Shown one piece after another: positions 2,125 to 44,878 of a stretch of DNA of 46,867 nucleotides. The notes beneath the pieces were generated by a model. That model worked only from the letters and a program-made list of their open reading frames with translations, did no database searches and was not told where the DNA came from. The translations under genes were made by a program, and so were the position numbers. Source of the stretch: an uncultured Gammaproteobacteria bacterium (GTDB lineage: Bacteria > Patescibacteriota > Patescibacteriia > 2-12-FULL-60-25); contig CAZXFK010000001.1 in NCBI GenBank assembly GCA_964640115.1, forward strand, positions 1 through 46,867. Direction: 5' to 3'. How positions within the stretch are numbered: position 1 is the first letter of the stretch; the number at the start of each line of letters is the position of its first letter.

Positions 2125-4167
2125 CTACCTCGGTATTTCAACTTTTCTGGTTTTTGATTCTTCAGTGTAAATATCCAAACGATCTCCAACCTGAACTTTT
2201 TCTTTTCCATGATAAGAGATTCCGCATTCTTGACCGGCCATAACCTCTTTAACTTTTTCCTTGCCGATTTGCACAGATTCAATTTCTCCTTGGCCCATTG
2301 GCTGTTCTGCTTCACCATCTTTGCGCCAAACTATCAATTTTGCACCGGATTTTGCCATGCCATGTTTAATTTTGCATCCAAACACCATTCTGTCTTTCTC
2401 GGTTCTGAAAATGGCCACAACTTCAGCTTTTCCCAATTCGGTTCTAACCACTTCATCCGGAAGCATGGCATTTAATCTGACTAATACATCATCTATCAAT
2501 TCATAAATGATTTCATATGTCGCCAGTTTTACACCTTTCTCACGAGCCATCAAAGAAGCTTGAGTTGTTGCCACTGTGTTAAAACCGTAAATAACCGAAT
2601 TGCCATCCGTTTCCGCGGCTTCAATATCGCCTTCCGTAATATTTCCCAAACCTTTTTTAATCACTTCCACGGCAACCGCTTCATGTCTGATTTTATCCAA
2701 CATGCCCATGATAGCTTCGAGCGAACCCAGTACGTCGGCTTTTAAAATAATATTCAAAGTGGCTTTTTGCTTACTCTCACCATCATCTTCCTTAATGCTT
2801 TTAACCGACATGAATTGATTACCTGTTTGATAACCGGTTTTACCCTTGCGCTTCTCCAAATCTCGCCAATCAACCGGCACTTCAAAAACATCTCCGACCG
2901 AAGGCGCGGTTTTGAACCCCAAAACTTTCACCGGAGTTCCGGGTAATGCCGTTGCAACCGCATCACCTTTATAATCGCGCATGGCTTTTACTCTTCCGGC
3001 CAACTCACCACGCATTCCCAAATAGTCATTAAGCTTTAAAGTCCCGACTTGAACCAAAGCCGTTGCAACCGGACCGGTATTTTTATCAACGTGAGATTCA
3101 ATAATGGTTCCACTGGCCAACTGATCGGAATTACTGCGCAACGCCTCTTCGTTCAAATCGGCCAATAATAAAATCATTTCCAATAAATCATCTATACCTA
3201 TTCCTTCTTTGGCTGAAATTTTAACCATTGGCACATTGCCTCCCCAAGCTTCGGTTGTAACACCGGCTTCGGAAAGTTGCGCCAAAACACGATCCGGATC
3301 AGCCTCAGGTTTATCAATTTTATTTAAAGCGACAATAAATGGCAATTTGGCTGCTTTGATAATATCAATAACTTCTCTGGTTTGCGGTTGTACTCCGTCA
3401 TCGGCCGCTACAACCAAAATGGCTATATCGGCAACTTTGGCACCACGCGAACGCATAACCGTAAAAGCTTCGTGCCCCGGAGTATCGATAAAAGTTATTA
3501 AACGATTTTTACGAACAGCTTGATAAGCGCCAATATGCTGAGTTATTCCTCCGGTTTCTCCTTCAACCACATGCGTCCTGCGAATCGCATCCAAAGTTTT
3601 AGTTTTTCCATGATCCACATGTCCCATCACAACCACGACCGGCGGCCTTGGTGCGAATTCACCCTTGATATCATCTTGTATTTTGGCATGTAATCTATCT
3701 TCAGCCGCTTCGGCATCACGATTTTTTTCAACACCATCTTCTTTTAAGACAGCTTCAAAACCCAACTCATCGGCAATAATCGCCGCAGTTTCGAAATCCA
3801 ATCTTTCATTCTGCGAAGCCAAAATACCGGCTTTCATCAAAACCTGAATAACTCTGGTTACCGACAAATTCATTTTTCCGGCCAACTCACGCACAATAAT
3901 CACCGACGGAATTGTAATTTTCTTTTTTTGAATACCTGTTTCCGCATTGGTTCCCGGTTCATGAGCCAATTCCAATAATTGTCCGCGTAATCTTTCGCGT
4001 CTTTGCTCTTGCGTCCACTTCTTGAAAATCTGCTCGGCGGTTCGATTATCAAGCTTAACCGCGCGCGCACCGATATCAAAACCCAATTTGGGCAAACGCT
4101 CCAATAATTCTTGCGGCGTAACCTTTAAACGCCTGGCTAAATCACTTACATTCATAAAATGGAGCAT
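2125..4167 (-). CDS. infB: Translation initiation factor IF-2
   Basis: 680 aa with the GTPase motifs GHVDHGKT, DTPGH and NKID, plus IF-2 C-terminal domains. The true start could be the internal Met at 4155. Confidence 0.93.
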   Translation of the reverse strand: MLHFMNVSDLARRLKVTPQELLERLPKLGFDIGARAVKLDNRTAEQIFKKWTQEQRRERLRGQLLELAHEPGTNAETGIQKKKITIPSVIIVRELAGKMNLSVTRVIQVLMKAGILASQNERLDFETAAIIADELGFEAVLKEDGVEKNRDAEAAEDRLHAKIQDDIKGEFAPRPPVVVVMGHVDHGKTKTLDAIRRTHVVEGETGGITQHIGAYQAVRKNRLITFIDTPGHEAFTVMRSRGAKVADIAILVVAADDGVQPQTREVIDIIKAAKLPFIVALNKIDKPEADPDRVLAQLSEAGVTTEAWGGNVPMVKISAKEGIGIDDLLEMILLLADLNEEALRSNSDQLASGTIIESHVDKNTGPVATALVQVGTLKLNDYLGMRGELAGRVKAMRDYKGDAVATALPGTPVKVLGFKTAPSVGDVFEVPVDWRDLEKRKGKTGYQTGNQFMSVKSIKEDDGESKQKATLNIILKADVLGSLEAIMGMLDKIRHEAVAVEVIKKGLGNITEGDIEAAETDGNSVIYGFNTVATTQASLMAREKGVKLATYEIIYELIDDVLVRLNAMLPDEVVRTELGKAEVVAIFRTEKDRMVFGCKIKHGMAKSGAKLIVWRKDGEAEQPMGQGEIESVQIGKEKVKEVMAGQECGISYHGKEKVQVGDRLDIYTEESKTRKVEIPR

Positions 4168-5247: not shown

Positions 5248-5931
5248 TTGTTCTATGCTTTCAATATTATGACACCGGAACTCGATTTATTATTACTCGT
5301 CAATAAACCCGCCGACATGACTTCGCATGATGTTGTAAATATCATCCGCAAAAAATACAATATACGCCGAGTTGGGCACGGAGGCACTTTGGATCCATTC
5401 GCAACGGGATTGCTTATAATCGGCATCGGCAAAGCGACTAAAAAACTCACAGACATAGTCGGTCTCGACAAAACCTACGAAGCAACAGCCATACTTGGTG
5501 CCACCTCTGACACTTACGATCTAACGGGGGAGATCGTCAAACGTCAAACGTCTAACGTCCCAAGTCAGGAGGAAATCGAAAAAGTGATGGAAAATTTCCG
5601 CGGTACCATCGAACAAAAAGCACCGGCTTATTCAGCCAAAAAAGTCGGCGGAAAAAAACTCTATGCACTCGCACGTGCCGGCGAAAATGTCGAACACCTG
5701 CGTCCAACCAAAAAAGTGGATATTACTGAACTTGTTATCACAGATTACAACTTCCCAACCTTAAAATTCCGTGTCACCTGCTCTTCCGGAACTTACATCC
5801 GTTCACTTGCCAATGACATCGGCGAAGCTTTGAGCTGCGGCGCTTATCTCTCGGAACTGAAACGAACCCGCATCGGACAATACAAACTCGAAGATGGTCT
5901 GAATTTTGACCAAGTCCCACGAAGCTTTTAG
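5248..5931 (+). CDS. truB: tRNA pseudouridine(55) synthase TruB
   Basis: VGHGGTLDPFATGLL contains the catalytic Asp motif. The start may be the Met at 5269. Confidence 0.88.
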   Translation: MFYAFNIMTPELDLLLLVNKPADMTSHDVVNIIRKKYNIRRVGHGGTLDPFATGLLIIGIGKATKKLTDIVGLDKTYEATAILGATSDTYDLTGEIVKRQTSNVPSQEEIEKVMENFRGTIEQKAPAYSAKKVGGKKLYALARAGENVEHLRPTKKVDITELVITDYNFPTLKFRVTCSSGTYIRSLANDIGEALSCGAYLSELKRTRIGQYKLEDGLNFDQVPRSF

Positions 5932-6075: not shown

Positions 6076-6116
6076 AACAAATCCCGAACATTCACATTAA
6101 AACAACGAGGTGAAAC

Positions 6117-6692
6117 GTGAATACTCCTGAAAATTCACATAATTCAATACTCCCCCGTACCTGGGGTCGAGAGTGGTTCTTGATCCGCGATAAAGAAATC
6201 CAAAAGAAACTGACAGCATCCGATCTTTGGTTCTCTCTCGGAGTCTTGCTGGCAATCCTATCTTCTTTGGTGTGCGGTATCCAATCATTAATCAGATTGG
6301 ATGGCATTAGCGGAGAATTGTTTGCTTACATGTTTGCCATGTTCTCTGCAATGTTTACATTTATTTTCTCTTGTTCTTTAAAATGTATGAGTCGCGAAAT
6401 TCTCCGCCCCTTCTATTTCTCCCGTTTGGCAAAAAAAACAAACGGGGATCGCGATAGCAAGATGGAAGCCTTCAAAAATATCATTCCTGAAGCAAAATAC
6501 CGCGTCGCCTCGTTTCCGCCCCTTAATGACGCAAAGCAGATTCGCGCACTCCTTGATTCAAACCGCCCGCTCTCCCGCAAGCAAAAATCAGAAGCTGAAG
6601 CGGTTCTCGAAGCTCAAGCAAAAGCTGAAGAAGCTGAAGCTTACGCCAAGCTGGCCCAAGCTCAAATTCAGACCAACTCAGAAGCCTCCTAA
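6117..6692 (+). CDS. Hypothetical membrane protein with Ala/Glu-rich C-terminal helix
   Basis: GAGGTG Shine-Dalgarno sequence before a GTG start. Two hydrophobic segments. No family recognised. Confidence 0.5.
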   Translation: MNTPENSHNSILPRTWGREWFLIRDKEIQKKLTASDLWFSLGVLLAILSSLVCGIQSLIRLDGISGELFAYMFAMFSAMFTFIFSCSLKCMSREILRPFYFSRLAKKTNGDRDSKMEAFKNIIPEAKYRVASFPPLNDAKQIRALLDSNRPLSRKQKSEAEAVLEAQAKAEEAEAYAKLAQAQIQTNSEAS

Positions 6693-6805
6693 AATGGAGG
6701 TCTTTTAATTTCTGACAACAAAACAGTAAACAACAACAACTTGATTTTTCCGAGTAGTGTGCTATTTTGATAATAAACGCACTTTCACAGAAACGAGCAA
6801 AGAAA

Positions 6806-7111
6806 ATGACAAAAGAGAACAACAAACCAACAAGTACTAATCAGCAATTTCTCGACTTTCTATTAAATATTACATTATATATTACATTGTTTTCCGTAAT
6901 CATCGGTTTTATTGTTATTTTCAACCATACTGATATTTTTCAGAACATATTAATGACTGCATTTGGTTTATTATGGCCCATGATAACGATAATAAATGTA
7001 ATAATCATGGCATGCTGGACATTTCTGATAGTCAGCATTTTAATAAAATTCATTCTCAAAACCATCTTGCTTTTTGTAGAAAAATGGAAAATTTTCGCTC
7101 CAATAAAGTAA
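6806..7111 (+). CDS. Hypothetical small membrane protein
   Basis: Three hydrophobic helices, followed by a terminator. The start is uncertain (ORF opens at 6767). Confidence 0.45.
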   Translation: MTKENNKPTSTNQQFLDFLLNITLYITLFSVIIGFIVIFNHTDIFQNILMTAFGLLWPMITIINVIIMACWTFLIVSILIKFILKTILLFVEKWKIFAPIK

Positions 7112-7492: not shown

Positions 7493-9025
7493 ATGTACGC
7501 ATTTATAGCGTTGGCATTTGGTCTTGCGGCCGGATACGGCATAGCCGCATTCGTCTATCAGCAAAAAGCCAAATCAGCCAAGCTTTCCATTGAGGAAGCA
7601 CAAGAAAAAGCGCAAAAAATTCTTAAAGAAGCCGAAACCAAAGAGGCTGATGTCATGGTTCGCGCCAAAGACAAAGCCATCAAAATTTTGGAAGATGCCC
7701 GTGTAGAAGAAAAAAAAGCTTTAGAAGATCTGAAAAAACAACAAAAAGAACTGAACGAACGCGAAAATTCCGTATCCAAAAAAATGCTGGATATCGACGA
7801 CCTGAAAAAATCTTTGGATGTCAAAGCCTCGGATTTGGAAAGTAATCTCGCCGCGGTTGAAGTCATGAAATTGGAAGAGAGCAAAAAATTAGAAGAAGTG
7901 GCCGGCTTAACTCAAGAACAAGCTGTGGAACGCATGCTCTCTTTGGTTGAAGAACAACATCAAGATACTTTAATGAGCCGTGTTCGCAAATTGGAACAAT
8001 TGGAGTCCGACGAAATCGAACGCAAAGCTCGCAACATTTTGGGCGTTACCATTCAACGCATCGCCGCTTCACATGTTACCGAAACAACAACCACAAATGT
8101 CGAACTTCCCAATGACGAGATGAAAGGCCGTATTATCGGACGTGAAGGCAGAAATATCAAAACAATCGAACAACTTACCGGTTGCGAACTTATCATCGAC
8201 GACACACCCAACATGATCACGGTCGCCGGTTTCTCCCCCATCCGCCGACAAGTGGCCAGCCGTTCGCTCACCAAGCTTATTGCCGATGGACGTATCCACC
8301 CCGGGCGCATCGAAGAAGCTGTGGACGAAGCCAAAAAAGAATTACAGCTTGATATCAAAAAAGCCGGCGAAGACGCCTTGTTTCAACTTGGCATTTCCAT
8401 GGCCGGTATTGATCCCAAGCTTGTGCAAATTTTAGGCCGTCTCAAATACCGCACTTCCTACGGTCAAAATATTCTTCAGCACTCCATCGAGGTTTCGCTT
8501 ATAGCCACAGCCTTGGCCGAAGAACTTGGCGCTGATGTTGCGGTTTGTAAAAAAGGCGGATTATTTCACGATATCGGCAAAGCCGTAGATCACGATTTGC
8601 AGGGAGGCCATCCTGAATTGGGCGTACAAATTCTTAAAAAATTCGGTTTCCCCGAAGAAATCTGGTATCAATCCATCGGTCATCATGAAGATAAACCCAA
8701 AACCTTGGAAGCCGTCATTGTTAAAGCCGCGGATGCCATCAGCGGAGCCCGCCCCGGCGCACGCAAAGATACTTTGGAGCAATACGTTAAACGTTTGGAA
8801 GAATTGGAAAATGTCGCCAAAGGCTTCGAGGGCATCGAAAGAGTTTATGCCATTCAAGCCGGCCGCGAAATCCGCGTGTTCGTAAACCCCATGTCCATCG
8901 ATGATTTCAACGCCACATCTTTGGCCCGCAATATCGCCAAAAAAATCGAGTCCGAACTCAAATACCCCGGCGAAATCAAAGTCACCCTGATCCGCGAAAC
9001 CAGAATCACCGAGTACGCCAGATAA
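7493..9025 (+). CDS. rny: Ribonuclease Y
   Basis: N-terminal transmembrane helix, coiled coil, KH domain (IIGREGRNIKTIE) and HD domain (LFHDIGKA...GHHE). 510 aa. Confidence 0.93.
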   Translation: MYAFIALAFGLAAGYGIAAFVYQQKAKSAKLSIEEAQEKAQKILKEAETKEADVMVRAKDKAIKILEDARVEEKKALEDLKKQQKELNERENSVSKKMLDIDDLKKSLDVKASDLESNLAAVEVMKLEESKKLEEVAGLTQEQAVERMLSLVEEQHQDTLMSRVRKLEQLESDEIERKARNILGVTIQRIAASHVTETTTTNVELPNDEMKGRIIGREGRNIKTIEQLTGCELIIDDTPNMITVAGFSPIRRQVASRSLTKLIADGRIHPGRIEEAVDEAKKELQLDIKKAGEDALFQLGISMAGIDPKLVQILGRLKYRTSYGQNILQHSIEVSLIATALAEELGADVAVCKKGGLFHDIGKAVDHDLQGGHPELGVQILKKFGFPEEIWYQSIGHHEDKPKTLEAVIVKAADAISGARPGARKDTLEQYVKRLEELENVAKGFEGIERVYAIQAGREIRVFVNPMSIDDFNATSLARNIAKKIESELKYPGEIKVTLIRETRITEYAR

Positions 9026-9053
9026 ATCCCCCAATCCCGCCACGGCGGGATAT

Positions 9054-9077
9054 CCCCCTTTTCTAAAGGGGGTTTTT
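9054..9077 (+). terminator. Rho-independent terminator after rny (GC-clamp hairpin family)
   Basis: CCCCCTTT-TCT-AAAGGGGG followed by TTTTT. It is preceded by a second hairpin, ATCCCGCC-AC-GGCGGGAT. Confidence 0.75.
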
Positions 9078-9213
9078 AGTATTTAAGTATTAACTCACTC
9101 TAAATCTCTCTCTTAAAATAAGAGAGAGACTTGTTAACAAAGTTAACTTTAGTTAACTTGGCAATTTGCAGCCCCTCTCTTGCATTAAGAGAGGGGGAAG
9201 GGGGTGAGTTAAT

Positions 9214-9289
9214 CCGTTACACCGTTACGACGTTATAAACGTTACGACATGACGACGTTATTGCCGTTACTCCGTTACAACGTTATACT
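9214..9289 (+). repeat. Degenerate ~8-bp tandem array (CCGTTACN / ACGTTATN), family E
   Basis: ccgttaca ccgttacg acgttata ... ccgttaca acgttata. The array ends 9 nt before the TrmB-like start codon. Confidence 0.8.
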
Positions 9290-9297
9290 ATATCCAT

Positions 9298-10035
9298 ATG
9301 CGCAACATTATCCCCGTATTAAAATCCTTAGGACTTCTGGAAAGTGAAGTCAAAACTTATTTGGCCACGCTCGAACTTGGACCAAGCACTGTTTTAGAAA
9401 TCAACAAAAAAATCGGCCTCTCCCGCCAAGCCATTTACACTGCCATTGAGTCCCTGATAACCCTCGGCCTGATGAGCTCGGTGGAAAAAGGTAAAAAAAC
9501 CCTCTTCGCCGCCGAATCCCCCGAAAGATTACGATCCTTCGCGGAGACCAAACTTAAAAAAATGGAATCAACTGTCAGAGAGATAAAAGATATTACGAAA
9601 GATTTGTCACTTGTGCAACAGGGCGAAAAACCGATCGTCCGAATGTATGAAGGCAATGAAGGTATCAAAGCAATTTTTGAAGATATTATAAAAACTACAC
9701 CAAAACATATTGATGAATTCACTAATGAAAGACTCGTCGCGGAATACTACAGCGATCTGGATCTGGGTCCATTAAAAGAAAAACTCGATAAATTAGGTAC
9801 AACCACAAATTTATTAGCAATAGGCGATCCTGAAATTAAAACTCGTAAAACTACCAAGAAAAAATTAATAACCAACTCGGGCATAAAATTCAATGGCGAT
9901 ATTTCCATTTACGATTCAAAAGTATCGCTAGCATCTTTTAAAGGAAAAGCTGTGTCAGTCATCATCGAAAGCGAAGAAATCGCACAAACACTTAGAAGTT
10001 TATTTAAACTAGCTTGGGATAACGAAAAAAAATAG
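9298..10035 (+). CDS. TrmB-family winged-helix transcriptional regulator
   Basis: The N-terminus LGLLESEVKTYLATLELGPSTVLEINKKIGLSRQAIYTAIESL matches the TrmB HTH pattern. Confidence 0.6.
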   Translation: MRNIIPVLKSLGLLESEVKTYLATLELGPSTVLEINKKIGLSRQAIYTAIESLITLGLMSSVEKGKKTLFAAESPERLRSFAETKLKKMESTVREIKDITKDLSLVQQGEKPIVRMYEGNEGIKAIFEDIIKTTPKHIDEFTNERLVAEYYSDLDLGPLKEKLDKLGTTTNLLAIGDPEIKTRKTTKKKLITNSGIKFNGDISIYDSKVSLASFKGKAVSVIIESEEIAQTLRSLFKLAWDNEKK

Positions 10036-10071
10036 CCCGGAAAACAACAGATCGTGTCTTCCGAGCTTGAG

Positions 10072-10094
10072 CTCTCCTACAAGGAGAGTTTTTT
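10072..10094. terminator. Bidirectional terminator between convergent genes
   Basis: CTCTCC-TACAA-GGAGAG followed by TTTTTT. It lies between the TrmB stop codon and the stop codon of the 10094-10891 gene. Confidence 0.7.
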
Positions 10095-10891
10095 CATCCG
10101 AAGATGCCACCTCCGGTACGTCCGAAGATGCCACCACCTTCGAATCCGAAGATGCCACCTCCGGTACGTCCGAAGATGCCACCACCTTCTTGCGTCGCGG
10201 ATGCGTACATGAAGGCTCTGTGACTCTGCTTCATGCCGCCGAACATCGCTTGTGCGAGTCCATCGACGACTTGGTTCGCTGCGCTCGCGATCTCGTTGCC
10301 GAGTTCGCATGCTTCGCGCTTTACAAGCGCGAAAAGGCTTGTTCCAAAAGCAGATTTCTCGGGCTCGCAGATCAACTTGCCGGTTTCGACGTTGAACTCG
10401 AGCTCAATTTGCTCTCGGTGAGGTCGGCGGTAACAGGTGCCGTTCTTGGGGTTCTCGCAATCGGGACCGCAGTTGCATTCGTCGCCGCTTCCTCCGTTGC
10501 TGTCGCTATCATCGTCATCATCTTCGAAGCGGGCAACATCCAAAATCGACCTTCCATTCTTCTCCGCTTCGAATGCGACGGCGAGTACGAAAATAGCGGT
10601 GATGAGGAGTGCAATTCCAAGTACCGTCGCGAATCCTTGAAACTGCAAGGCAGCATTCATCATGAACACCGCACCGCCAAGAAAGACATAGGTGTTTACC
10701 ACCTTTGCATTCCGTCTACGCTTTGCGTATTCCGAGCTCTTCAACAAGCTCGAATCATAGCCCGGGATATTGAAAGCGTAAGCTAATCCAACTCGGCCGC
10801 ACCAAAGGAAGTCCTCGACTGAGTGCAAAAAACAAAAAACTCCGTTTTTCAAAAAACTATTTTCTTCCTTTTCGCTTTTCGATTTTTCCAT
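10094..10891 (-). CDS. Hypothetical GC-rich membrane protein with C-terminal (GGGIFG)x4 tail
   Basis: Two transmembrane helices, an acidic D/S stretch, the Cys cluster CNCGPDCENPKNGTC, and the ending GGGIFGRTGGGIFGFEGGGIFGRTGGGIFG. The stop codon abuts the terminator. The start is uncertain. Confidence 0.45.
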   Translation of the reverse strand: MEKSKSEKEENSFLKNGVFCFLHSVEDFLWCGRVGLAYAFNIPGYDSSLLKSSEYAKRRRNAKVVNTYVFLGGAVFMMNAALQFQGFATVLGIALLITAIFVLAVAFEAEKNGRSILDVARFEDDDDDSDSNGGSGDECNCGPDCENPKNGTCYRRPHREQIELEFNVETGKLICEPEKSAFGTSLFALVKREACELGNEIASAANQVVDGLAQAMFGGMKQSHRAFMYASATQEGGGIFGRTGGGIFGFEGGGIFGRTGGGIFG

Positions 10892-11004
10892 TTTCTCTTC
10901 TCCTTTTCATTTTGATCCCACAGCGAAGAGTTACCGCGGGAACGTGCGAAATTGCCGAAGTTTCTGCTCGGCGCAGGCCTCTGACACTTTTCAGAGAACC
11001 GAAT

Positions 11005-11033
11005 AATTTATCATATTTTTGGCATTTTGTCAA
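11005..11033 (-). promoter_or_regulatory. Sigma70-like promoter (TTGACA-17-TAAATT) facing the 10094-10891 gene
   Basis: Read on the minus strand, about 100 nt upstream of the ORF start. Confidence 0.4.
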
Positions 11034-11237
11034 GGGTAGCAAGACAAAAACCACAAACAACAATTATCAAAATGCTCTTAATGTCCAACTATTGATTTCT
11101 CTTTGACAAAATACCGGTAAAATAATTTTATCTAATTTTAGAGAAATAATTGATAATTAACACATTTTATTGATATTAATTATCCATTTTGTCCCCCATC
11201 CCTTGACAAAATCCGCTGGATGTGTTAGTGTCAAATG

Positions 11238-11291
11238 TCCACTAGACAAAGAGTCTCTTGGATACGCAAATCGAGCGTCCGCTCGATTTTG
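11238..11291 (+). ncRNA. Candidate small RNA (promoter TTGACA-17-TAGTGT at 11203-11231 plus terminator hairpin)
   Basis: A consensus -35 is followed about 35 nt downstream by AAATCGAGC-GTCC-GCTCGATTT and a T-run. No ORF is present. Not matched to any known RNA family. Confidence 0.25.
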
Positions 11292-11420
11292 TAAAACAAA
11301 ATACAAAAACCACAATCGCAAATTACAAATCAATATTTTTGACGCATCACATCGTTCTTGCCTTCCCCGCAAGCCACGATAAATGACTCTTCCGGCATGC
11401 TTGTCCGGATGAAACTTCTG

Positions 11421-11455
11421 CGAAATTCGAAATACGAAATTCGAATTTCGAATCA
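11421..11455 (+). repeat. Heptamer tandem array, family B (CGAAATT-like), 5 units
   Basis: cgaaatt cgaaata cgaaatt cgaattt cgaatca. Confidence 0.85.
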
Positions 11456-11747
11456 TGTCTGATTTCCCCGTCAGTAGCTCCTCACCAATTAAAGCGTCCG
11501 CTTGCGGACCAAAGAGGCGCGAACACGAATAATTGGAACTTGGATGCAAATCCATTTTAAACGATGCAATAAAAAACAAAGATCCGGATTAGCCAATCCG
11601 ATCTCTTGTAGAGTTCGTCATCCGAGGAGAAATGATGAGCTCTACTAGAGAACACACGTAATAAATTAAAAATAATAAATAACAAATAATAAAGGTAAAT
11701 ACATTCGCTCGCTATATTATTAATTGATTTATAAATTAAAACAAAAT

Positions 11748-12341
11748 ATGTTGGAAACATTATTCAGACCTAAAGCTGCCAAGGTTGAAGATCATCCGGA
11801 GTGGTTGCCGATAGAAAGCCCAAAAATACATCTTGATAAATTCCCCGAAGAAATACTAGAACAGACAACCGGAACTGAATATCATCACGAAGCTGGTGCA
11901 AAAGTGGAACAAAACGAATTAATCGAAATACAATTACCGGAAGTGGAAATCCCCGAGCATCTGCCGAACTGGTTTGATGTGATGGCTGAATCCATCGATG
12001 ACTTACAGAATGAATCGGCACTTGATACATTATCAGCTGTCGGTAAAATGGGCGCCCATGATCCGAATATCATTAAAAATTATTTGGAAAAAATCCCGCG
12101 CGCGACTCTTGAGCGCATACAAAAACATTGTATCGACATGGCTTGCGAACAAGCAAAAAAATTAAACGCTCATATCATGGGACGCGAAACTCTCGATCCG
12201 AAGACTCTGCAGGCCGAACAATATCAATTAAAAAAATTATTCAACATCGCCACAGTATTAACCGCCGGAGGTTGTGACGATTTAAGCCGAACACTGATTC
12301 AATTGGAATCTGCCCATCAAAGAGCGCGCCAAATTCAATAA
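11748..12341 (+). CDS. Hypothetical acidic protein
   Basis: 197-aa ORF counted from the ATG at 11748. No SD sequence. It is tightly spaced with the next two ORFs. No family recognised. Confidence 0.5.
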   Translation: MLETLFRPKAAKVEDHPEWLPIESPKIHLDKFPEEILEQTTGTEYHHEAGAKVEQNELIEIQLPEVEIPEHLPNWFDVMAESIDDLQNESALDTLSAVGKMGAHDPNIIKNYLEKIPRATLERIQKHCIDMACEQAKKLNAHIMGRETLDPKTLQAEQYQLKKLFNIATVLTAGGCDDLSRTLIQLESAHQRARQIQ

Positions 12342-12359
12342 ATATCTTAAATTAAAATT

Positions 12360-12869
12360 ATGTCAGAAAAATTTATACAAAAAAGTGAAAAATCAAACCA
12401 TATTAAAATCTTCGACGTCAATATTGATTTTCCGGAAAATACTGATGCGGAAATAATCGCTCAACTGCAAAAAATTCAAACGGATTCTTTACAGTCATAT
12501 TTAAAAGAAGTGGAAAAATATAATTTTTATCCTTCTTTAGTCGCCAGAGATGGATATGGAAAACTCATTGACATAACAATGCAACATGTTGAAGGCGGAT
12601 ATTCGGAAACGAATATTTTGGATATACCGCTCGCATACGTAGGTTATGCCGGACACAATTATGACGGTTATGCATTAATCAATGGCAACGGGACCGAATC
12701 AAGTGATTACGGAGGATTCTCGGAAACCGGTGAAACAGTTGCCGAAAAACAGCCTGATGGCCAATATGCTCATTTTATAGTCACGCAACAAAATCAATGG
12801 ACCAATTGGTATCCGGAAAACCGAGAAATAGAACGCGAAAGAAAACGCATCGCTGATAAAAAACAATAA
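12360..12869 (+). CDS. Hypothetical protein
   Basis: 169-aa ORF starting 18 nt after the previous stop codon. No family recognised. Confidence 0.5.
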   Translation: MSEKFIQKSEKSNHIKIFDVNIDFPENTDAEIIAQLQKIQTDSLQSYLKEVEKYNFYPSLVARDGYGKLIDITMQHVEGGYSETNILDIPLAYVGYAGHNYDGYALINGNGTESSDYGGFSETGETVAEKQPDGQYAHFIVTQQNQWTNWYPENREIERERKRIADKKQ

Positions 12870-12884
12870 AAATCTCAAAAGCTT

Positions 12885-13076
12885 ATGAAAAACGAATCAT
12901 TCAATAATCAATCGGCTAATGACAATGCTTATGCGCCGATTATAGAATTTAAATCAATCGCACGTCCACTTGAGAAAAACTCAAATGAGACCTCAAACGA
13001 AGCTCAAGTAATCGAGTTTCGCTCCATAGCCAATAAACCGACCAATTATAATCCCAGACCTCCGGAAGCAGCTTAA
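12885..13076 (+). CDS. Hypothetical small protein with duplicated (I/V)IEF(K/R)SIA motif
   Basis: 63-aa ORF starting 15 nt after the previous stop codon, with an internal repeat IIEFKSIARP / VIEFRSIANKP. Confidence 0.35.
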   Translation: MKNESFNNQSANDNAYAPIIEFKSIARPLEKNSNETSNEAQVIEFRSIANKPTNYNPRPPEAA

Positions 13077-13135
13077 AAACAACCAAAGGATTCGGGAACA
13101 ATATGTTCCTCTCTCCGCCATACTTCATGTACATA

Positions 13136-13163
13136 GCCGCTAGCTACTAGCTACCAGCTATTT
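13136..13163 (-). repeat. Heptamer tandem array, family A in inverse orientation
   Basis: gccgcta gctacta gctacca gctattt, which is the reverse complement of CTRGTAG units. Confidence 0.8.
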
Positions 13164-13204
13164 ACATGATGTACGGCGGGGAAAAACAAACAAAGGAGAT
13201 TCCC

Positions 13205-13705
13205 ATGAATAACATGACCGGGACAGTACATTTCACTTTCACCGACGATAGCGATTCCGAAGAAGTCGCTGAGTCAACCTACAAATTCCAGGAGTATGTT
13301 CATTGTTGTATCAAGGGCTGCCACGTTCAACTTGTGTACGACGTGATTGCGGTTGTGTGCTATAAAGAGCGCAAAACCAAAGTCATCGGGCGCAACTTGA
13401 TCGAGGCTTACGTTGACTCTCCCTGTGACAGAAAGAAATGCGGTCGTTACCGCGACAAGGAGGAACCCATTTGTTGGCACCAGTTTGAAAGAGATGGCGG
13501 CAATAGCGGGAGCCGGCTCATCTGCTTTGGAAACATGCATTTTGTTTTCAATTGCAGTGAATACGGTACGGGTTGGGACGCTGAACAAGCTCCAACTCCC
13601 TGCGACGGCTCTTGCGAACTCAAGGAGGTGACATTCACGGAAGAGGAAGAAGTGCTAATAACGTCGGTAATCGATGATTACAAGGAAAATAATCCCAACA
13701 CATAA
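13205..13705 (+). CDS. Hypothetical Cys-rich protein (GC-rich)
   Basis: AAAGGAG Shine-Dalgarno sequence 6 nt before the ATG. About 12 Cys residues, including CCIKGCH and CDRKKCGRY...ICWH. No family recognised. Confidence 0.5.
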   Translation: MNNMTGTVHFTFTDDSDSEEVAESTYKFQEYVHCCIKGCHVQLVYDVIAVVCYKERKTKVIGRNLIEAYVDSPCDRKKCGRYRDKEEPICWHQFERDGGNSGSRLICFGNMHFVFNCSEYGTGWDAEQAPTPCDGSCELKEVTFTEEEEVLITSVIDDYKENNPNT

Positions 13706-13727
13706 AAAGGAGGATAAAATAAATTTC

Positions 13728-13841
13728 ATGTTAATCGAAAAAAAGCAAATGATCTTCACCTCACTCAAGGTCATCGCGGTACTGTATGTACTGACAGGCT
13801 CGATGGCACTCACCCGGTTGATCCTCGACACATTCCTCTAA
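13728..13841 (+). CDS. Candidate 37-aa single-pass membrane peptide
   Basis: AAAGGAGG lies about 12 nt upstream. The peptide MLIEKKQMIFTSLKVIAVLYVLTGSMALTRLILDTFL is not in the supplied ORF track because it is too short. Confidence 0.35.
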   Translation: MLIEKKQMIFTSLKVIAVLYVLTGSMALTRLILDTFL

Positions 13842-13871
13842 CCCAAATCTAGCGACACCCTCTGTCGCAAT

Positions 13872-13949
13872 CTCCCCATGCCAAACAACTCAAATTGACG
13901 TTCGACGTTAGACGTTCGACGTTAGACGCTGTTTGTTTGCTACGGGGAG
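13872..13949. repeat. Imperfect inverted repeat enclosing a GACGTTN heptamer array (family C, 13897-13931)
   Basis: CTCCCCATGCCAAACAAC ... GTTTGTTTGCTACGGGGAG flanks gacgttc gacgtta gacgttc gacgtta gacgctg. Confidence 0.75.
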
Positions 13950-14294
13950 CTTGCATCTTTTAACAAAGTAATATAAGCTCGCCTTAGAGAGCCAAGGAAA
14001 TAATCGCTTCATTCATCCCTCGGGATGGATGTCCTTCGAAGCATCAGCGAAGAAGGATCCCCATTGGTCCTCATGCGAAAAAAACCACTTAAACAGCGGT
14101 TTTTTTGTTTATTAAGATTATTTTCTGCAAACCGCATCGATTACGTAAATCCACAGAGCTTATATTTTGGAGGGTGATCTCTCCTCTTCATTCTCCGTCT
14201 TAGGCGGATGCGCATAGGACGTAGAATAATTAACAATAGTAGACGTTGAATGTAGTGGAGATTTCTCACGTACGTTCGAAATGACAAACCTTAG

Positions 14295-14329
14295 CTGGTA
14301 ACTAGTGGCTAGTGGCTAGAAGCTAGTGG
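14295..14329 (+). repeat. Heptamer tandem array, family A, 5 units
   Basis: ctggtaa ctagtgg ctagtgg ctagaag ctagtgg, followed by cttaata and then the -35 box. Confidence 0.88.
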
Positions 14330-14337
14330 CTTAATAG

Positions 14338-14366
14338 TTGACATTTCATCTTAATAAGGTATATTA
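14338..14366 (+). promoter_or_regulatory. Sigma70-like promoter (TTGACA-17-ATATTA)
   Basis: Consensus -35 in the context ATAGTTGACA, about 35 nt upstream of the SD sequence and ATG at 14402. Confidence 0.55.
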
Positions 14367-14401
14367 CCCGAATCGCATTTTCGCGATAAAAGGAGGTTAA
14401 G

Positions 14402-15337
14402 ATGGCACTTTCAAACAAACATTGTTGGATCGGATTGTTTGACGCTGAAGGCAATCTTCGCGACAACTTTTTGATGTATACCGGAATAGAAAACGACGCG
14501 CATTACATGCGACAATTCAAAGCGCTTTGCGCATTGGGCCGCATTCGCACCGAACATCTGTTCCATTCCGGGTGCCAGCTTTTGGCGCAAACCGAATACG
14601 GTTTGGCAAACTTCGCTTCGGTCAAACCGTTTTCAATCGGCGATTTCTTCCGCATTATCGGTGAAACCGAGCATCGCACTCTCGTTGGAGATATGGAGCA
14701 TGCCAACGAACTCGCCGGTATTGAACGATTGCTGGCGCATAATGCCAATCACGAAGCCGATACGCCCATCTCCCCCGCCCATGATGACACACCAATCGAA
14801 ATTCCGGCACTGGACAATTTTTTGCCCAACTTGCAATCCGCGCCAGAATGGCTCAAAAACTATGCTTCATTTTGCATCAAGAGCAATTCTCCTTATGAAA
14901 TAGCGCAATTGGTTGGTCTATTCGCGCGCACCGGAAACAAATCCGCGCGCGAACTTGGCTCCAATTGGGCGAAAAAACTTTCTCACAAACAGCTGATTCG
15001 GCTGGGCAAGGCCAATATCGAGCAATTGTTTGCACTCACAGACGCGGCTTTGCGTTTGGAACCGGCAACCAATGCCATTCAAGAAAAACAATTAACCGAA
15101 ACGGTTGTAATGATTCTAGCCATGCGTGATCATTGCGAAAGCATTTTCTGGATCTTGGAAGAAGCAAATTATCCTCCCATGAGAGATCTTTTTGCCATCG
15201 AAGACAGTCTTCTTTCCAATCCGCTTTTGTTTACCACGCCTCTTACGAACAAAGGCAACTGGATGGTTCAGTTACTGGCTCATGTACGCGAACACAGCCC
15301 CGTTTGCTGGTGGGCTGTCCGCGCCAATCTGGTCTAA
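14402..15337 (+). CDS. Hypothetical protein (GC-rich ORFan)
   Basis: AAAGGAGG Shine-Dalgarno sequence, 311 aa, with its own promoter and terminator. No family recognised. Confidence 0.55.
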   Translation: MALSNKHCWIGLFDAEGNLRDNFLMYTGIENDAHYMRQFKALCALGRIRTEHLFHSGCQLLAQTEYGLANFASVKPFSIGDFFRIIGETEHRTLVGDMEHANELAGIERLLAHNANHEADTPISPAHDDTPIEIPALDNFLPNLQSAPEWLKNYASFCIKSNSPYEIAQLVGLFARTGNKSARELGSNWAKKLSHKQLIRLGKANIEQLFALTDAALRLEPATNAIQEKQLTETVVMILAMRDHCESIFWILEEANYPPMRDLFAIEDSLLSNPLLFTTPLTNKGNWMVQLLAHVREHSPVCWWAVRANLV

Positions 15338-15342
15338 ACCAT

Positions 15343-15365
15343 AAACCGCCAAACTGGCGGTTTTT
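15343..15365 (+). terminator. Rho-independent terminator
   Basis: AAACCGCC-AAACT-GGCGGTTT followed by TT. Confidence 0.7.
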
Positions 15366-15369
15366 ATAG

Positions 15370-15398
15370 TTGACAAGTATCGATATATATTATACTGA
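15370..15398 (+). promoter_or_regulatory. Sigma70-like promoter (TTGACA then TATACT/TACTGA)
   Basis: Same ATAGTTGACA context as at 14338. The -10 register is ambiguous within an AT-rich run. Confidence 0.5.
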
Positions 15399-15432
15399 AT
15401 TCATATAGGAAACAAACACCAAGGAGTTTTCC

Positions 15433-16056
15433 ATGGCTAATCCGCTAACCGCAGAACAAATCACCGAAATCGCAATTTCACAAAAAATCAAAAACATTAT
15501 TGTTTTTGATGATACTCCGGAAACTGCACCGTATTCAATGCACTGCAGTATCTCCGATCCGGTTCATGAAAATGCAGTCATGATCATTTACGGCTATGCG
15601 CGCGTTCATCATTTCATATCTTCCGTGGATTCAAGAGTTGGCAGACACGAATCAATTATCATCCCCCAAGAATCTTCGGAAGCCGAAGGCTTGGCGGTAA
15701 GCGGATTTATTTTTGGCAGGGTTCTTCCTCGTATAACCTGCGGATATCAAATACTAAATCCGCAAACCGGACAAACATCCCAATTTTCGCATCACGAAAT
15801 TCTCCCGGCTGAACACGAATCCGGATTAATCATAGTTGTCGATGAAAATCCCATTCAACAAATCAATTTGTATTTTGAAATAACAGCCATGCTCGAAACC
15901 GATACGGAAAAAATCACATTCGAAAATATCCCGCCCCTGCACACCGTACTCGATCAAAAAATCGATGAATGGTATCCCGACAAAAAACCGGTTCACAAGC
16001 TCACTGCCTTTGACAACCCGTTCGGACCATATACCAATTATATGGTTACACTCTAA
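15433..16056 (+). CDS. Hypothetical protein (ORFan)
   Basis: AAGGAG Shine-Dalgarno sequence, 207 aa, with its own promoter and terminator. No family recognised. Confidence 0.55.
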   Translation: MANPLTAEQITEIAISQKIKNIIVFDDTPETAPYSMHCSISDPVHENAVMIIYGYARVHHFISSVDSRVGRHESIIIPQESSEAEGLAVSGFIFGRVLPRITCGYQILNPQTGQTSQFSHHEILPAEHESGLIIVVDENPIQQINLYFEITAMLETDTEKITFENIPPLHTVLDQKIDEWYPDKKPVHKLTAFDNPFGPYTNYMVTL

Positions 16057-16060
16057 ACAC

Positions 16061-16084
16061 AATCTCCCTTCAGGGAGATTTTTC
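16061..16084 (+). terminator. Rho-independent terminator
   Basis: AATCTCCC-TTCA-GGGAGATT followed by TTT. Confidence 0.7.
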
Positions 16085-16089
16085 ATTTA

Positions 16090-16118
16090 TTGACTGCAAA
16101 CATCTCTGCATTTAAGAT
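16090..16118 (+). promoter_or_regulatory. Sigma70-like promoter (TTGACT-17-TAAGAT)
   Basis: Immediately downstream of the preceding terminator and upstream of the SD sequence and ATG at 16171. Confidence 0.5.
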
Positions 16119-16170
16119 AAAAGCAAGAGAAATGGCATCGCACATTATCATTACCAAAAGGAGTACATTC

Positions 16171-16356
16171 ATGACAGAGAACAATTTATTAACCGAATCC
16201 AAAAAAACCGAAATCGCCAAAGATCAAGTAAAACCCGCGATTTACAATCATTTGCATGTAAAACGCCGAATCTACTACGTGGATTCCAACGGATGTGTAA
16301 TCTTTGAACTATCTGAAGCTTTATCAGCCAAAGAATCAAATCTGCACAATACCTAA
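16171..16356 (+). CDS. Hypothetical small protein (61 aa)
   Basis: AAAGGAG Shine-Dalgarno sequence 7 nt before the ATG. The longer ORF from 16090 would begin inside the promoter. Confidence 0.4.
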   Translation: MTENNLLTESKKTEIAKDQVKPAIYNHLHVKRRIYYVDSNGCVIFELSEALSAKESNLHNT

Positions 16357-16462
16357 TCTACCCCTCTCAATCTGACTCTCTATCGCACAAGTCTTTCTTT
16401 GCCATATCTCTTGGCTTGTGCCCCTTCTTGAACGGAGATACAAATGTCCTTTCAAGAATTGT

Positions 16463-17275
16463 ATGTCAAAACTAAACATCCTCGTCTTTGGAGATATTGT
16501 CGGCAAAATCGGACGCCAAGCTCTTGCTGCCGTTCTTCCCGATTTAAAATTAAAATACAAAACCGACCTCGCAATCGCCAATGTCGAAAATCTGGCACAC
16601 GGCCGTGGTATCACCAAAAAAACTTTGCAAGAAATAAGCGATGCGGGCATCGATGTTTTTACATCCGGCCATCATGTTTTTGAAAACCAACAAGGCTTGC
16701 CTTTATTAAATGATCCGATCTGGTCACAACGATTGATCCGCCCGGCCAACGTCGGTCCAAACCTGCCCGGAAAAGGCTGGATCCATCTCAACATCAAAAA
16801 TACGCTAGTCAGTATTCTGAATCTTCAAGGTCAACTTTTCATGCCTCAAGAACCGGCTTCAATCTTCCTCTCTTTCGACCGATTTTGGAAAGAACAATGC
16901 CCTGAATCATCAAAACGCATGTTAATTGTTGATCTTCATGCCGAAACAACCAGTGAAAAAAACGCCTTCGCTCATTATGTCGATGGCAAAGCCAATCTGG
17001 TCTTTGGCACCCACACTCATGTACCCACTGCAGACCTAAAAATCCTGCCTAATGGAACTGTTCAAATTACAGACGTGGGCATGGTTGGCGCTCATGATTC
17101 TGTTATCGGATTTGAAAAAAATAGCTCTATTAAGCGATTTTTAGCCGAATCTACAGCTCCGTATAAAATCCCCGAATCAGGCGAAGTCGATATCAACGGC
17201 ATATTTGTCAGCTGGGATATTGAAGCAGGAAAAGCCGTAAAAATACAACAGATACGTGAAATAGTTGCAATTTAA
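16463..17275 (+). CDS. ymdB: YmdB-family metallophosphoesterase (TIGR00282-like)
   Basis: LNILVFGDIVGKIGRQA...ANVENLAHGRGIT...FTSGHHVF...GTHTHVPTAD matches the YmdB calcineurin-like motifs. Confidence 0.85.
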   Translation: MSKLNILVFGDIVGKIGRQALAAVLPDLKLKYKTDLAIANVENLAHGRGITKKTLQEISDAGIDVFTSGHHVFENQQGLPLLNDPIWSQRLIRPANVGPNLPGKGWIHLNIKNTLVSILNLQGQLFMPQEPASIFLSFDRFWKEQCPESSKRMLIVDLHAETTSEKNAFAHYVDGKANLVFGTHTHVPTADLKILPNGTVQITDVGMVGAHDSVIGFEKNSSIKRFLAESTAPYKIPESGEVDINGIFVSWDIEAGKAVKIQQIREIVAI

Positions 17276-25309: not shown

Positions 25310-25396
25310 CATCCGTATCAACCGGATAAGAATGGCGTGCCATCCGTATCTACCGGATAAGGATGGCGTGCCATCCGTAGCTTTAGCGAAGGATGG
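25310..25396. repeat. 31-bp tandem hairpin repeat (2.8 copies) abutting the tRNA-Leu 3' end
   Basis: CATCCGTATC(A/T)ACCGGATAAG(A/G)ATGGCGTGC twice, plus a partial third copy that runs into the tRNA CCA end. Each unit folds as CATCCGTATC/GATAAGGATG. Confidence 0.85.
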
Positions 25397-39411: not shown

Positions 39412-39416
39412 AATAG

Positions 39417-39458
39417 CTAGAAGCTAGAAGCTAGAAGCTGGTAGCTGGTAGCTCGTGG
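39417..39458 (+). repeat. Heptamer tandem array, family A, 6 units
   Basis: ctagaag x3 ctggtag x2 ctcgtgg, followed by ctgttaa. It ends 7 nt from the ruvA stop codon. Confidence 0.9.
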
Positions 39459-44794: not shown

Positions 44795-44842
44795 ATGGCT
44801 CTTATATTGGCGGAAAATTCGGGATTGGTCAACTAAACACAT

Positions 44843-44878
44843 TCTTAACGTTGATAACGTTCTTAACGTTTATAACGA
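44843..44878 (+). repeat. 9-bp tandem array (NNTAACGTT), family E
   Basis: cttaacgtt gataacgtt cttaacgtt tataacgag. Confidence 0.8.

Follow-up and report, generated by a model that had tools for sequence, protein, structure and literature searches.

In Bacillus subtilis and other Firmicutes, the gene for RNase Y (rny) and ymdB form an operon, which for B. subtilis is said to have been described by Diethmaier et al. in 2011. Both genes, with order and orientation unchanged, are found in the window analysed here, a stretch of 46,867 nucleotides from a Patescibacteria metagenome-assembled genome of 1.22 Mb. The genome belongs to a Candidatus Uhrbacteria-like genus, and the source records of homologues name Candidatus Uhrbacteria. 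In contrast to the B. subtilis operon, the pair is split by 7.4 kb, a terminator follows rny, and ymdB has in front of it a new small gene and a putative promoter of its own. The explanation that we favour, and consider fairly probable, is that the 7.4 kb are a genus-restricted, chromosomally inherited variable region, which has grown in the ancestral junction and is reshaped by homologous recombination and not through the integrase of a mobile element. An earlier note on this DNA had proposed an uncharacterised accessory module inserted into a conserved gene pair. The insertion and the uncharacterised content stand, but the region is neither one module nor a recent arrival. Its borders are defined by the following features.

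7493-9025, plus strand: rny (RNase Y), the left conserved flank, with Pfam RNase_Y_N, KH and HD
9054-9077, plus strand: strong intrinsic terminator of rny, with an 8-bp GC stem and a T-run
16463-17275, plus strand: ymdB, the right conserved flank (PF13277, 2.6e-83)

YmdB is listed as a 2',3'-cyclic-nucleotide phosphodiesterase (PMC4993169). With the ATG at 16463 as its start it has 270 amino acids (aa), the same length as in relatives; a GTG at 16418 gives an upstream extension. As the earlier note had stated, the two genes are about 7.4 kb apart: rny ends at 9025 and ymdB starts at 16463, with 7,437 bp (9026-16462) between them. This interval, called the island below, is probably cut off from rny transcriptionally by the terminator at 9054-9077. 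RNase Y is 72-98% identical across the genus.

Both flanking genes were located in 40 relatives, which are designated below by their handles where they have to be told apart. Twelve genomes from other genera of the class have the two genes on a single contig, and in all 12 they are neighbours: eleven gaps measure 0-125 bp, and one measures 476 bp. Distances within the genus run from 18 bp up to 9.9 kb, with 18-214 bp in G005, G010 and G013, about 540-730 bp in five genomes, and 2.6-9.9 kb in 13 genomes, which are termed expanded. Since the pair is adjacent across the class and in several members of the genus, the DNA between the two genes has been inserted into a conserved pair; adjacency is the ancestral state, and the interval a lineage-specific expansion. 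Gene order thus agrees with the proposed insertion, but intervening content turned out to be partly conserved as well, an outcome that the earlier note had named as speaking against its reading. A shared TrmB-like gene, a pair of TTGACAAAA promoters and a backbone of o205, o63 and o88 make part of the island conserved lineage content for the subclade.

In its fixed position between core genes, variable cargo and lack of mobility genes, the island resembles the integrase-independent plasticity hotspots, with which it also shares mosaic synonymous divergence (dS) and allele replacement. It differs from them in having its own stably inherited core (regulator, promoter region, structured RNA and small terminal gene), in the absence of recognisable defence, metabolic or surface genes, and in its location in a reduced genome of ~1.2 Mb from the Candidate Phyla Radiation (CPR). 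The order o205, a slot, o63, a block and o88 is common to seven or eight genomes. The slot after o205 holds o169 in the window, is empty in the two closest relatives, and is taken elsewhere by fam31, fam49 or other open reading frames (ORFs). The later block contains varied combinations of o179 or another Cys/His-rich protein, a pair of a HAD hydrolase and a 330-aa protein, o311 and o207, and in relatives also a DUF5680 protein with a 95-aa partner. G017 has lost most of the cargo together with the membrane gene, and has kept the TrmB-like gene, the promoter region, the RNA and o207. Altogether, at least 15 distinct cargo families occur across 21 genomes between the same flanking core genes, while the stable core consists of the TrmB-like gene, the membrane gene, the bidirectional promoter, the RNA and an o88-type gene before ymdB.

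Some of the variable genes deserve separate mention. The HAD-family hydrolase (about 301-306 aa) and its overlapping partner of 297-331 aa are inserted as a pair in G007, G021 and L045 (for example L045:7930-9806). The DUF5680 protein and its 95-aa upstream partner precede o88 in G007 and G021, and DUF5680 is found alone in G004, G012 and G019. The hydrolase and DUF5680 are the only cargo genes with a Pfam match.

Remodelling is also visible at the DNA level. Compared with the sibling L042, the alignable parts of the region are 88-96% identical, and a tract at 9720-10859, which comprises the C-terminal domain (C-domain) of the TrmB-like protein and the whole membrane gene, cannot be aligned. 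The dS values in this comparison are 0.93 for trmB, 0.08-0.19 for the cargo and 0.44 for rny. The tract of TrmB C-half and membrane gene is likewise unalignable between G016 and G006, and the membrane gene alone between G002 and G018. The region is therefore mosaic, and has been remodelled gene by gene via homologous recombination. A recently integrated mobile element (prophage remnant, satellite, integrative and conjugative element or transposon) with ORFans as cargo might come to mind in view of the patchy presence within the genus, the many small acidic proteins without homologues, which are reminiscent of phage early regions, the repressor-like helix-turn-helix (HTH) gene at one end, and the break of the closest relative's assembly inside the island. 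Yet no integrase, transposase or recombinase was found in about 15 versions of the island, when the window island was searched with Pfam, PHROG and NCBIfam, and the relatives with Pfam only, on selected cargo or from precomputed Pfam. Flanking direct, inverted or att-type repeats are lacking, the nearest tRNA gene is at 25394, and no similarity to PHROG, phage, plasmid or IMG/VR sequences was detected. The GC content of the island (0.425) is close to that of the genome (0.438), only o169, with a GC content at third codon positions (GC3) of 0.29, being at the edge of the genome distribution. Moreover, orthologous islands are collinear in species with RNase Y only 72-90% identical. A recent integration is on this evidence very improbable.

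The part of the island that precedes the cargo contains most of the regulatory core, with these features.

9215-9289: three 25-nt direct repeats of the CGTTAC type, overlapping the putative TrmB promoter
9261-9289: putative TrmB promoter, TTGCCG-17-TATACT
9298-10035, plus strand: TrmB-like regulator, 245 aa (PF01978, 7.5e-13)
10034-10067, minus strand: terminator-like hairpin at the point where the TrmB and membrane genes converge, with a 13-pair stem and a T-run
10094-10891, minus strand: gene for a convergent hypervariable protein with two transmembrane segments (2-TM protein), 265 aa, GC 0.519
11024-11049: inverted repeat ATTTTGTC-N10-GACAAAA, containing the -35 box TTGACAAAAT of the membrane-gene promoter (11033-11024, minus strand)
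11186-11231, plus strand: palindrome ATTTTGTC-N11-GACAAAAT (11186-11212) overlapping the -35 box of the plus-strand promoter, a candidate operator
11238-11655, plus strand: structured leader RNA or non-coding RNA (ncRNA) of ~420 nt

In this part the earlier note was largely accurate. The gene assigned to the TrmB family does match PF01978, and the convergent GC-rich gene does encode a membrane protein with two hydrophobic helices. The 856-bp stretch described as non-coding (10892-11747) indeed has no conserved ORF, but it encodes a structured plus-strand RNA, which had been missed.

The regulator shares with the TrmB family of Pyrococcus and Thermococcus (PDB 3QPH) the N-terminal winged helix and the dimerisation helix of PF01978, which it matches with 48.6 bits, compared to a cut-off of 25.6. 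The similarity to P. furiosus TrmB (8.9e-7) spans only residues 7-146 of the regulator, aligned to residues 10-151 of 3QPH. The known TrmB proteins have about 340 aa, whereas the island regulator has 245, and its C-terminal ~100 residues lack a match to the sugar-binding domain and are hypervariable between sibling species. This domain was not found by Pfam, which gives no match past residue ~76, or in the alignment to 3QPH, which ends at residue 146. The NCBIfam TrmB equivalogs reach 37 bits, with a cut-off of 600.

A TrmB-like gene directly follows rny in 13 of 13 expanded genomes, and these 13 sequences were aligned for a comparison of the domains. The regulator combines a conserved winged-HTH N-terminal domain (N-domain, residues 1-80) with a hypervariable C-domain (residues ~141-245). 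Identity of the N-domain is 91-96% inside the subclade to which the window belongs and 62-82% to more distant members of the genus; the domain tracks the species tree (99% for G004/G012, 96% for G000/G001). The C-domain departs from the species tree: identity is as low as 46% for G004/G012 and 42% for the sibling species G000/G001, but 73% between the non-sister species G001 and G007, and 61% for G007/G012. The genome contains four further TrmB-like paralogues of ~245 aa (C13:118-873 and C22:360-1163, 2694-3422 and 6096-6839). The C13 paralogue adjoins huge secreted proteins that are rich in Gly, Thr, Ser and Cys, and has itself undergone a C-domain allele switch between G007 and G021 (N-domain 97%, C-domain 46%).

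The convergent membrane gene is present in similar position and architecture in 11 of the 13 expanded genomes. In the GC-rich segment a plus-frame ORF at 10067-10786 was also considered and was rejected, because the minus frame at 10094-10891 alone matches distant relatives and is hence the real gene. The hydrophobic segments of the protein are at residues 64-82 and 87-105. They are followed by an acidic, Cys-rich C-terminal region that ends in four GGGIFG repeats, which stem from an exact 48-nt tandem duplication (10096-10189). The proteins of relatives end in other repeats, namely GGGIYG, GGYGRT, GGYDR, GGPFGR, GGFSK and GGxWG. In G017 the membrane gene is deleted and its promoter kept; in G019 an antisense-frame ORF with the repeat signature was all that was seen in its place.

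Because the TrmB C-domain and the membrane gene are replaced as one tract, we infer that the two proteins are a functional pair. A specific form of this idea would be a pherotype-like system, in which the C-domain recognises the species-specific GG-aromatic repeats, as released peptides or bound in the cytoplasm, and switches on the RNA-led operon. Gram-positive quorum-sensing pherotype loci such as agrBDCA, comQXPA, PlcR-PapR and Rgg-SHP similarly join a conserved part for output or DNA binding to a hypervariable one for specificity, next to a hypervariable partner gene; their alleles cross species lines, and the regulated operon lies next door. The island has a conserved DNA-binding domain joined to a hypervariable effector domain, and an equally hypervariable adjoining gene whose product ends in 2-5 tandem units of 6-8 residues that differ between species, and the exchange of both in one tract would also fit. 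Repeat and C-domain classes match in part: G001 and G007 share GGY[DG]R and C-domains of 73% identity, G021 and L045 share GGGIYG and C-domains of 93% identity. Overall, though, the correlation between TrmB C-domain and membrane protein is weak (Mantel rho 0.33, p = 0.015), G012 breaks the pattern, and G017 keeps the regulator without the membrane gene. Unlike the Gram-positive loci, the island shows no sign of a small secreted propeptide, a processing enzyme or an exporter, and the membrane protein has 200-400 aa. The receptor fold is not a tetratricopeptide repeat protein or histidine kinase, and the covariation is statistically weak. The positive-inside rule would place the C-terminus of the membrane protein in the cytoplasm, peptidase, exporter or Opp genes were not seen in the island, beyond which no search was made, and a TrmB paralogue shows some C-domain variability without such a partner. 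All in all, a pherotype-like pair is quite unlikely.

Between the membrane gene and the cargo lies the best-conserved part of the island: the alignment of 10892-11750 with six relatives shows long invariant runs, although the neighbouring proteins are only ~60% identical. Within it, the structured RNA is the most conserved island element after the TrmB-like gene. The predicted plus-strand promoter consists of TTGACA (11203), a 17-nt spacer and TAGTGT (11226-11231), with a TG extension. The palindrome ATTTTGTC-N11-GACAAAAT that overlaps it occurs once in the 1.22-Mb genome, and its columns are invariant in the alignment. Exact copies of TTGACAAAAT number 24 genome-wide; three of them are found within 190 bp here, and two of the three form inverted repeats. 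The TTGACAAAAT box of the membrane-gene promoter, on the minus strand, is conserved in 13 of 13 TrmB-bearing relatives, and each of the 13 expanded genomes has one TTGACAAAA box in minus and one in plus orientation in the interval that separates the membrane gene from the genes downstream.

The RNA predicted downstream resembles the long structured 5' leaders and riboswitch-like cis-regulators in several respects: a promoter predicted to be its own, a terminator-like hairpin early in the sequence, a multi-helix domain that shows covariation and contains invariant single-stranded stretches, and a location just ahead of the first ORF. It differs from them in matching no Rfam family, in carrying a variable heptamer-repeat insert, and in having no clear terminator or Shine-Dalgarno-sequestering platform near the o205 start, from which it is separated by an AT-rich spacer of ~100 nt. 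Its 5' part has a terminator-like 9-bp hairpin with a short U-run (11268-11290), followed by an invariant CCGG hairpin, and its middle contains the heptamer-repeat insert (11421-11452). The 3' domain of ~195 nt (11455-11651) combines a junction of four helices with two hairpins and, at its end, a 19-bp hairpin whose GGAGGAG loop is invariant. RNAalifold finds 12 compensatory pairs on an unbiased MAFFT alignment. In an alignment of 12 sequences fitted to the model, and hence leaning towards it, double changes occur in 22 of the 52 pairs, and 96.8% of the cells are paired, compared with 34-42% in slid controls; none of 500 shuffles reaches the observed value. The fold of the window sequence has a z-score of -5.85, and G-U pairs in helix 7 assign the RNA to the plus strand. 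A short peptide ORF in the terminal hairpin was considered and rejected, since the substitutions track base pairing and not codons, so that the constraint is on RNA structure.

At the gathering threshold, Rfam recognises only tRNAs in the window, and its best sub-threshold matches to 10850-11800 are miRNA hairpins (22 bits, with 91 required). A covariance model of the RNA, termed R1, matches 11 of the 22 genomes of the genus, each at exactly one site, which always lies inside the island and 5' of plus-strand cargo, whichever gene comes first: o205, a 352-aa ORF (G004), fam31 (G012) or o207 (G017). Outside the genus, 299 genomes of the class, representing 236 genera, gave no match to the model. 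When GTDB and JGI contigs were scanned for exact motifs, the full RNA was located only in this lineage, and the few other matches (L051, L059 and L053/L054/L056/L057) contain nothing beyond a motif of ~25 nt. Some relatives have inserts in the RNA. A GC-rich palindrome of 31 nt, CTTCGCCTCAGGCGTATGCGCCTCAGGAGCA, interrupts the heptamer region in L042 (5245-5275) and L058, and in G007 (L047) a hairpin of ~55 nt is inserted between the first hairpin and the A-rich tract. These inserts resemble GC-clamp palindromes elsewhere in this genome.

Downstream of the RNA, the island continues with the cargo and the small gene o88.

11748-12341, plus strand: o205, first gene of the cargo operon
12360-12869, plus strand: o169, a single-gene cassette present in this genome only
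12885-13076, plus strand: o63, a small acidic protein with an internal [IV]IEF[KR]SIA repeat, a backbone gene
13205-13705, plus strand: o179, an acidic, soluble, Cys-rich protein (11 Cys)
13728-13841, plus strand: 37-aa single-helix membrane peptide with an AAAGGAGG ribosome-binding site
14338-14365, plus strand: near-consensus promoter TTGACA-16-TATATT ahead of o311, 11 of 12 positions
14402-15337, plus strand: o311, a two-domain soluble protein with an alpha/beta N-domain and a helical C-domain in the AlphaFold2 (AF2) model
15343-15363 and 16061-16080: terminator-like hairpins
15433-16056, plus strand: o207, an acidic soluble protein
16090-16118: putative o88 promoter
16171-16356 (longer form from 16090), plus strand: o88, a small basic protein ending in ...HN, directly upstream of ymdB and assigned to the ancestral core

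Nine plus-strand ORFs were counted after the 856-bp stretch; those itemised are o205, o169, o63, o179, the 37-aa peptide, o311, o207 and o88. Much of the first reading of this part holds: the three-gene cluster at 11748-13076 is tight, with gaps of 18 and 15 nt in the trio o205-o169-o63, further ORFs follow at 13205-16356, and the near-consensus promoter ahead of the last three of them was recovered. The terminator reported after the first three-gene cluster was not, none there being convincing; terminator-like hairpins are those listed at 15343-15363 and 16061-16080. The genes had been called ORFans without a known family and without an integrase or transposase among them. Apart from TrmB, Pfam, PHROGs, PADLOC and NCBIfam indeed recognise none of the island proteins, and no integrase or transposase was found, but most of the supposed ORFans have orthologues, which occur only inside the genus, and o169 is the only true singleton.

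The first gene, o205, encodes a protein with a disordered acidic N-terminus, an invariant LPxVEIPEHLPNWFD motif and, in the AF2 model, a 6-helix bundle; the predicted local distance difference test (pLDDT) score is 69 overall and 85-93 in the bundle. Among 5.8e9 proteins it has 16 homologues, all from this lineage and with invariant motifs in common, and its ratio of nonsynonymous to synonymous divergence (dN/dS) is 0.13-0.26. In the same set, o169 matches only itself. It fills exactly the space from the o205 stop to the o63 start and is absent in L042 and L058, the latter with a 100% identical o205; its GC3 of 0.29 places it no higher than the 2.5th percentile for the genome. Orthologues of o63 are present in at least seven genomes (dN/dS 0.06-0.16), o179 is 89% identical in L042 and 44% in L045 (dN/dS 0.24-0.55), and the 37-aa peptide, with its hydrophobic segment, is conserved in L042, L045 and L058 (dN/dS 0.05-0.41). 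For o311 (pLDDT 67, dN/dS 0.15-0.19), a word search returns three homologues and HMMER against 1.84e9 representatives four strong and eight weak ones, the remote matches being without an informative Pfam domain. In some species o311 is fused to an N-terminal extension of ~240 aa, to give 550-558 aa (G007, L047:1329-3000 on the minus strand; P0020/P0021), and in G019 the extension is a separate 209-aa ORF at the o207 position. The o207 gene, which directly follows the leader RNA in G017, has a dN/dS of 0.05.

The last gene, o88, probably encodes 61 aa from the ATG at 16171; relatives align only from residue ~24-28 of the longer form, and the L042 version is called as 61 aa. An o88-type ORF of ~60 aa immediately precedes ymdB in 10 of the 13 expanded genomes, and a hidden Markov model of seven orthologues matches the syntenic ORFs with 7e-8 in G009 and 0.04 in G002 and G018.

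Little can be learnt about the cargo from similarity. The proteins are soluble and mostly acidic, and signal peptides are not evident. A PDB sequence search with o205, o207, o179 and o169 gave no match, and Foldseek searches with AF2 models (o205 and o311 against PDB, o311 against the viral BFVD) gave none below E = 0.2. No paralogues of the cargo genes were found within their own genome. Two suspected relationships were dismissed: hhalign assigns a probability of 0.3% to the similarity of the helical C-terminal domains of o205 and o311, and for o169 and fam31, the slot occupant in other species, which share a 'PLAxVG' motif, the probability is a non-significant 2.5%. Cargo turnover, lineage restriction and cassette behaviour suggest a role in conflict or interaction and not in housekeeping. 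It is also possible, judging by position, that the cargo is tied to the RNA metabolism of RNase Y and YmdB.

The turnover raises the question of a defence-island hotspot, in which uncharacterised anti-phage or toxin-immunity systems would be exchanged by recombination in the flanks. The cargo is variable and lies between conserved flanks, cassettes turn over gene by gene and include a singleton with deviant GC3, evolution is faster than in the flanks, and there is a local regulator. Nevertheless, PADLOC has no match among nine window proteins and ten cargo proteins of relatives, its only matches to the island being weak, HTH-level ones of TrmB to CasR/Csa3. Folds typical of nucleases, ATPases, methylases or toxins were not recognised, and the only cargo of relatives that Pfam and PADLOC identify among the ten proteins searched is the HAD hydrolase and DUF5680. 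In addition, the backbone of o205, o63 and o88 is stably inherited, unlike typical defence cargo. A defence hotspot thus appears unlikely. At the other extreme, the island could be a functionally inert intergenic expansion, made of decaying or spurious ORFs at a permissive site. Such a view could draw on the lack of homologues outside the genus, the many short ORFs and the heptamer repeats in the spacers. It is hard to reconcile with the dN/dS values, which in comparisons with L042 and L045 are well below 1 for every island ORF with an orthologue (0.05-0.55; rny 0.02-0.06, ymdB 0.07), so that the cargo genes are under purifying selection. The invariant motifs across 16 o205 sequences, the confident helical domains predicted by AF2 and the strong RNA covariation are equally at odds with it, and 7 kb of junk would rarely be retained in streamlined genomes of 1.2 Mb. 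Inert DNA is therefore extremely improbable.

The spacers between the genes have peculiarities of their own. Tandem arrays with a period of 7 nt (sometimes 8-9 nt) are present in many of them, with differing units such as GTGGCTA, TTCGTGG, CGAAATT, GACGTTA and CTAGTGG. Examples are found at 1145-1178, 1434-1474, 2053-2118, 5535-5559, 9215-9287, 11421-11452, 13140-13160, 13897-13928, 14302-14331, 39414-39453 and 44842-44877. Relatives have different heptamers at corresponding places, including the leader RNA, and the arrays are a genome-wide feature. A role as island-specific operators was rejected because they occur throughout the window. In G001, the GTDB representative of the sibling species, the assembly is broken in the island between o179 and o311 (ends of C30 and C28), at a point that coincides with the repeat-rich spacer 13842-14300; another assembly, L042, spans it. 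A stretch reading '...PLVLMRKK...' in spurious-looking ORFs is shared by 14025-14100 and G007 (L023:5242-5445), where its positions in the island differ. This genome has one copy of it, which could represent a short conserved element of DNA or RNA. An island with rny, TrmB, RNA, o205 and ymdB is also present in L050/G006 (CAYFST010000029.1), where the membrane gene is partly masked with N; the record is titled 'uncultured Gammaproteobacteria bacterium' and is probably mislabelled.

If the island is a chromosomally inherited variable region with its own regulatory core, as we propose, its parts could work together as follows. The TrmB-like protein would bind the inverted repeats and gate divergent transcription of the membrane partner and of the RNA-led operon, in response to a signal that may be read through the variable TrmB C-domain, the membrane protein or both. 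The leader RNA would act as a second checkpoint after initiation, with its early terminator-like hairpin and the long terminal hairpin that displays the GGAGGAG loop.

Several observations weigh against this interpretation. Binding of TrmB to the inverted repeats is suggested by proximity and conservation, and the boxes, which contain a -35 hexamer, may owe their conservation to promoter function alone. The promoter, the start of transcription and the role of the RNA as a leader are predicted from consensus and position; no RNA run was found to contain the locus, and the RNA may be a stand-alone ncRNA. The covariation of TrmB C-domain and membrane protein is not only weak but also below the correlation of either with the phylogeny. 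A TrmB paralogue elsewhere in the genome likewise has a more variable C-domain (84% identity for G000/G001, 46% for G007/G021), and part of the pattern is thus a trait of the family; the 84% between G000 and G001 makes the island copy the more extreme one. No homology supports a function of the cargo, for which the AF2 models are of moderate confidence (pLDDT 67-69). Finally, the tree of concatenated RNase Y and YmdB splits the expanded genomes into three groups interleaved with unexpanded ones, a patchy distribution on weakly supported deep nodes. One early gain with several losses and lateral spread via recombination in the flanks are both possible histories, which the tree does not separate.

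At its most far-reaching, the proposal would be that TrmB, its hypervariable membrane partner and the genus-specific RNA make up a new type of specificity-switching module, pherotype-like or for partner recognition, which, in episymbiotic CPR bacteria, would control an operon of exchangeable cargo, and that the RNA represents a new class of cis-regulator or ncRNA with a functional tie to RNase Y/YmdB, the RNA-processing pair between which it lies. We put this forward as a speculation that is unlikely to hold.

Plasticity hotspots between core genes are already known. What is new here is that such a hotspot, in a reduced CPR genome, has inherited a regulatory core of its own, which includes a structured RNA not described before and a pair of a domain-swapping regulator and a membrane protein. 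Patescibacteria have tiny genomes, in which most lineage-specific genes cannot be annotated, and to our knowledge their regulation is almost unstudied. The locus amounts to a natural experiment, in which one genus has between 18 bp and 10 kb inserted between the same two core genes. It offers a structured RNA that is supported by covariation and belongs to no Rfam family, a regulator whose sensor half is reshuffled between species together with the neighbouring membrane protein, while the DNA-binding half and the candidate operator are fixed, and small proteins under purifying selection that occur nowhere else among 5.8 billion sequences. If the logic of regulator, RNA and cargo proves true, it would be among the first described CPR-specific regulatory circuits, and would provide a handle on how accessory functions diversify without mobile elements in these organisms.

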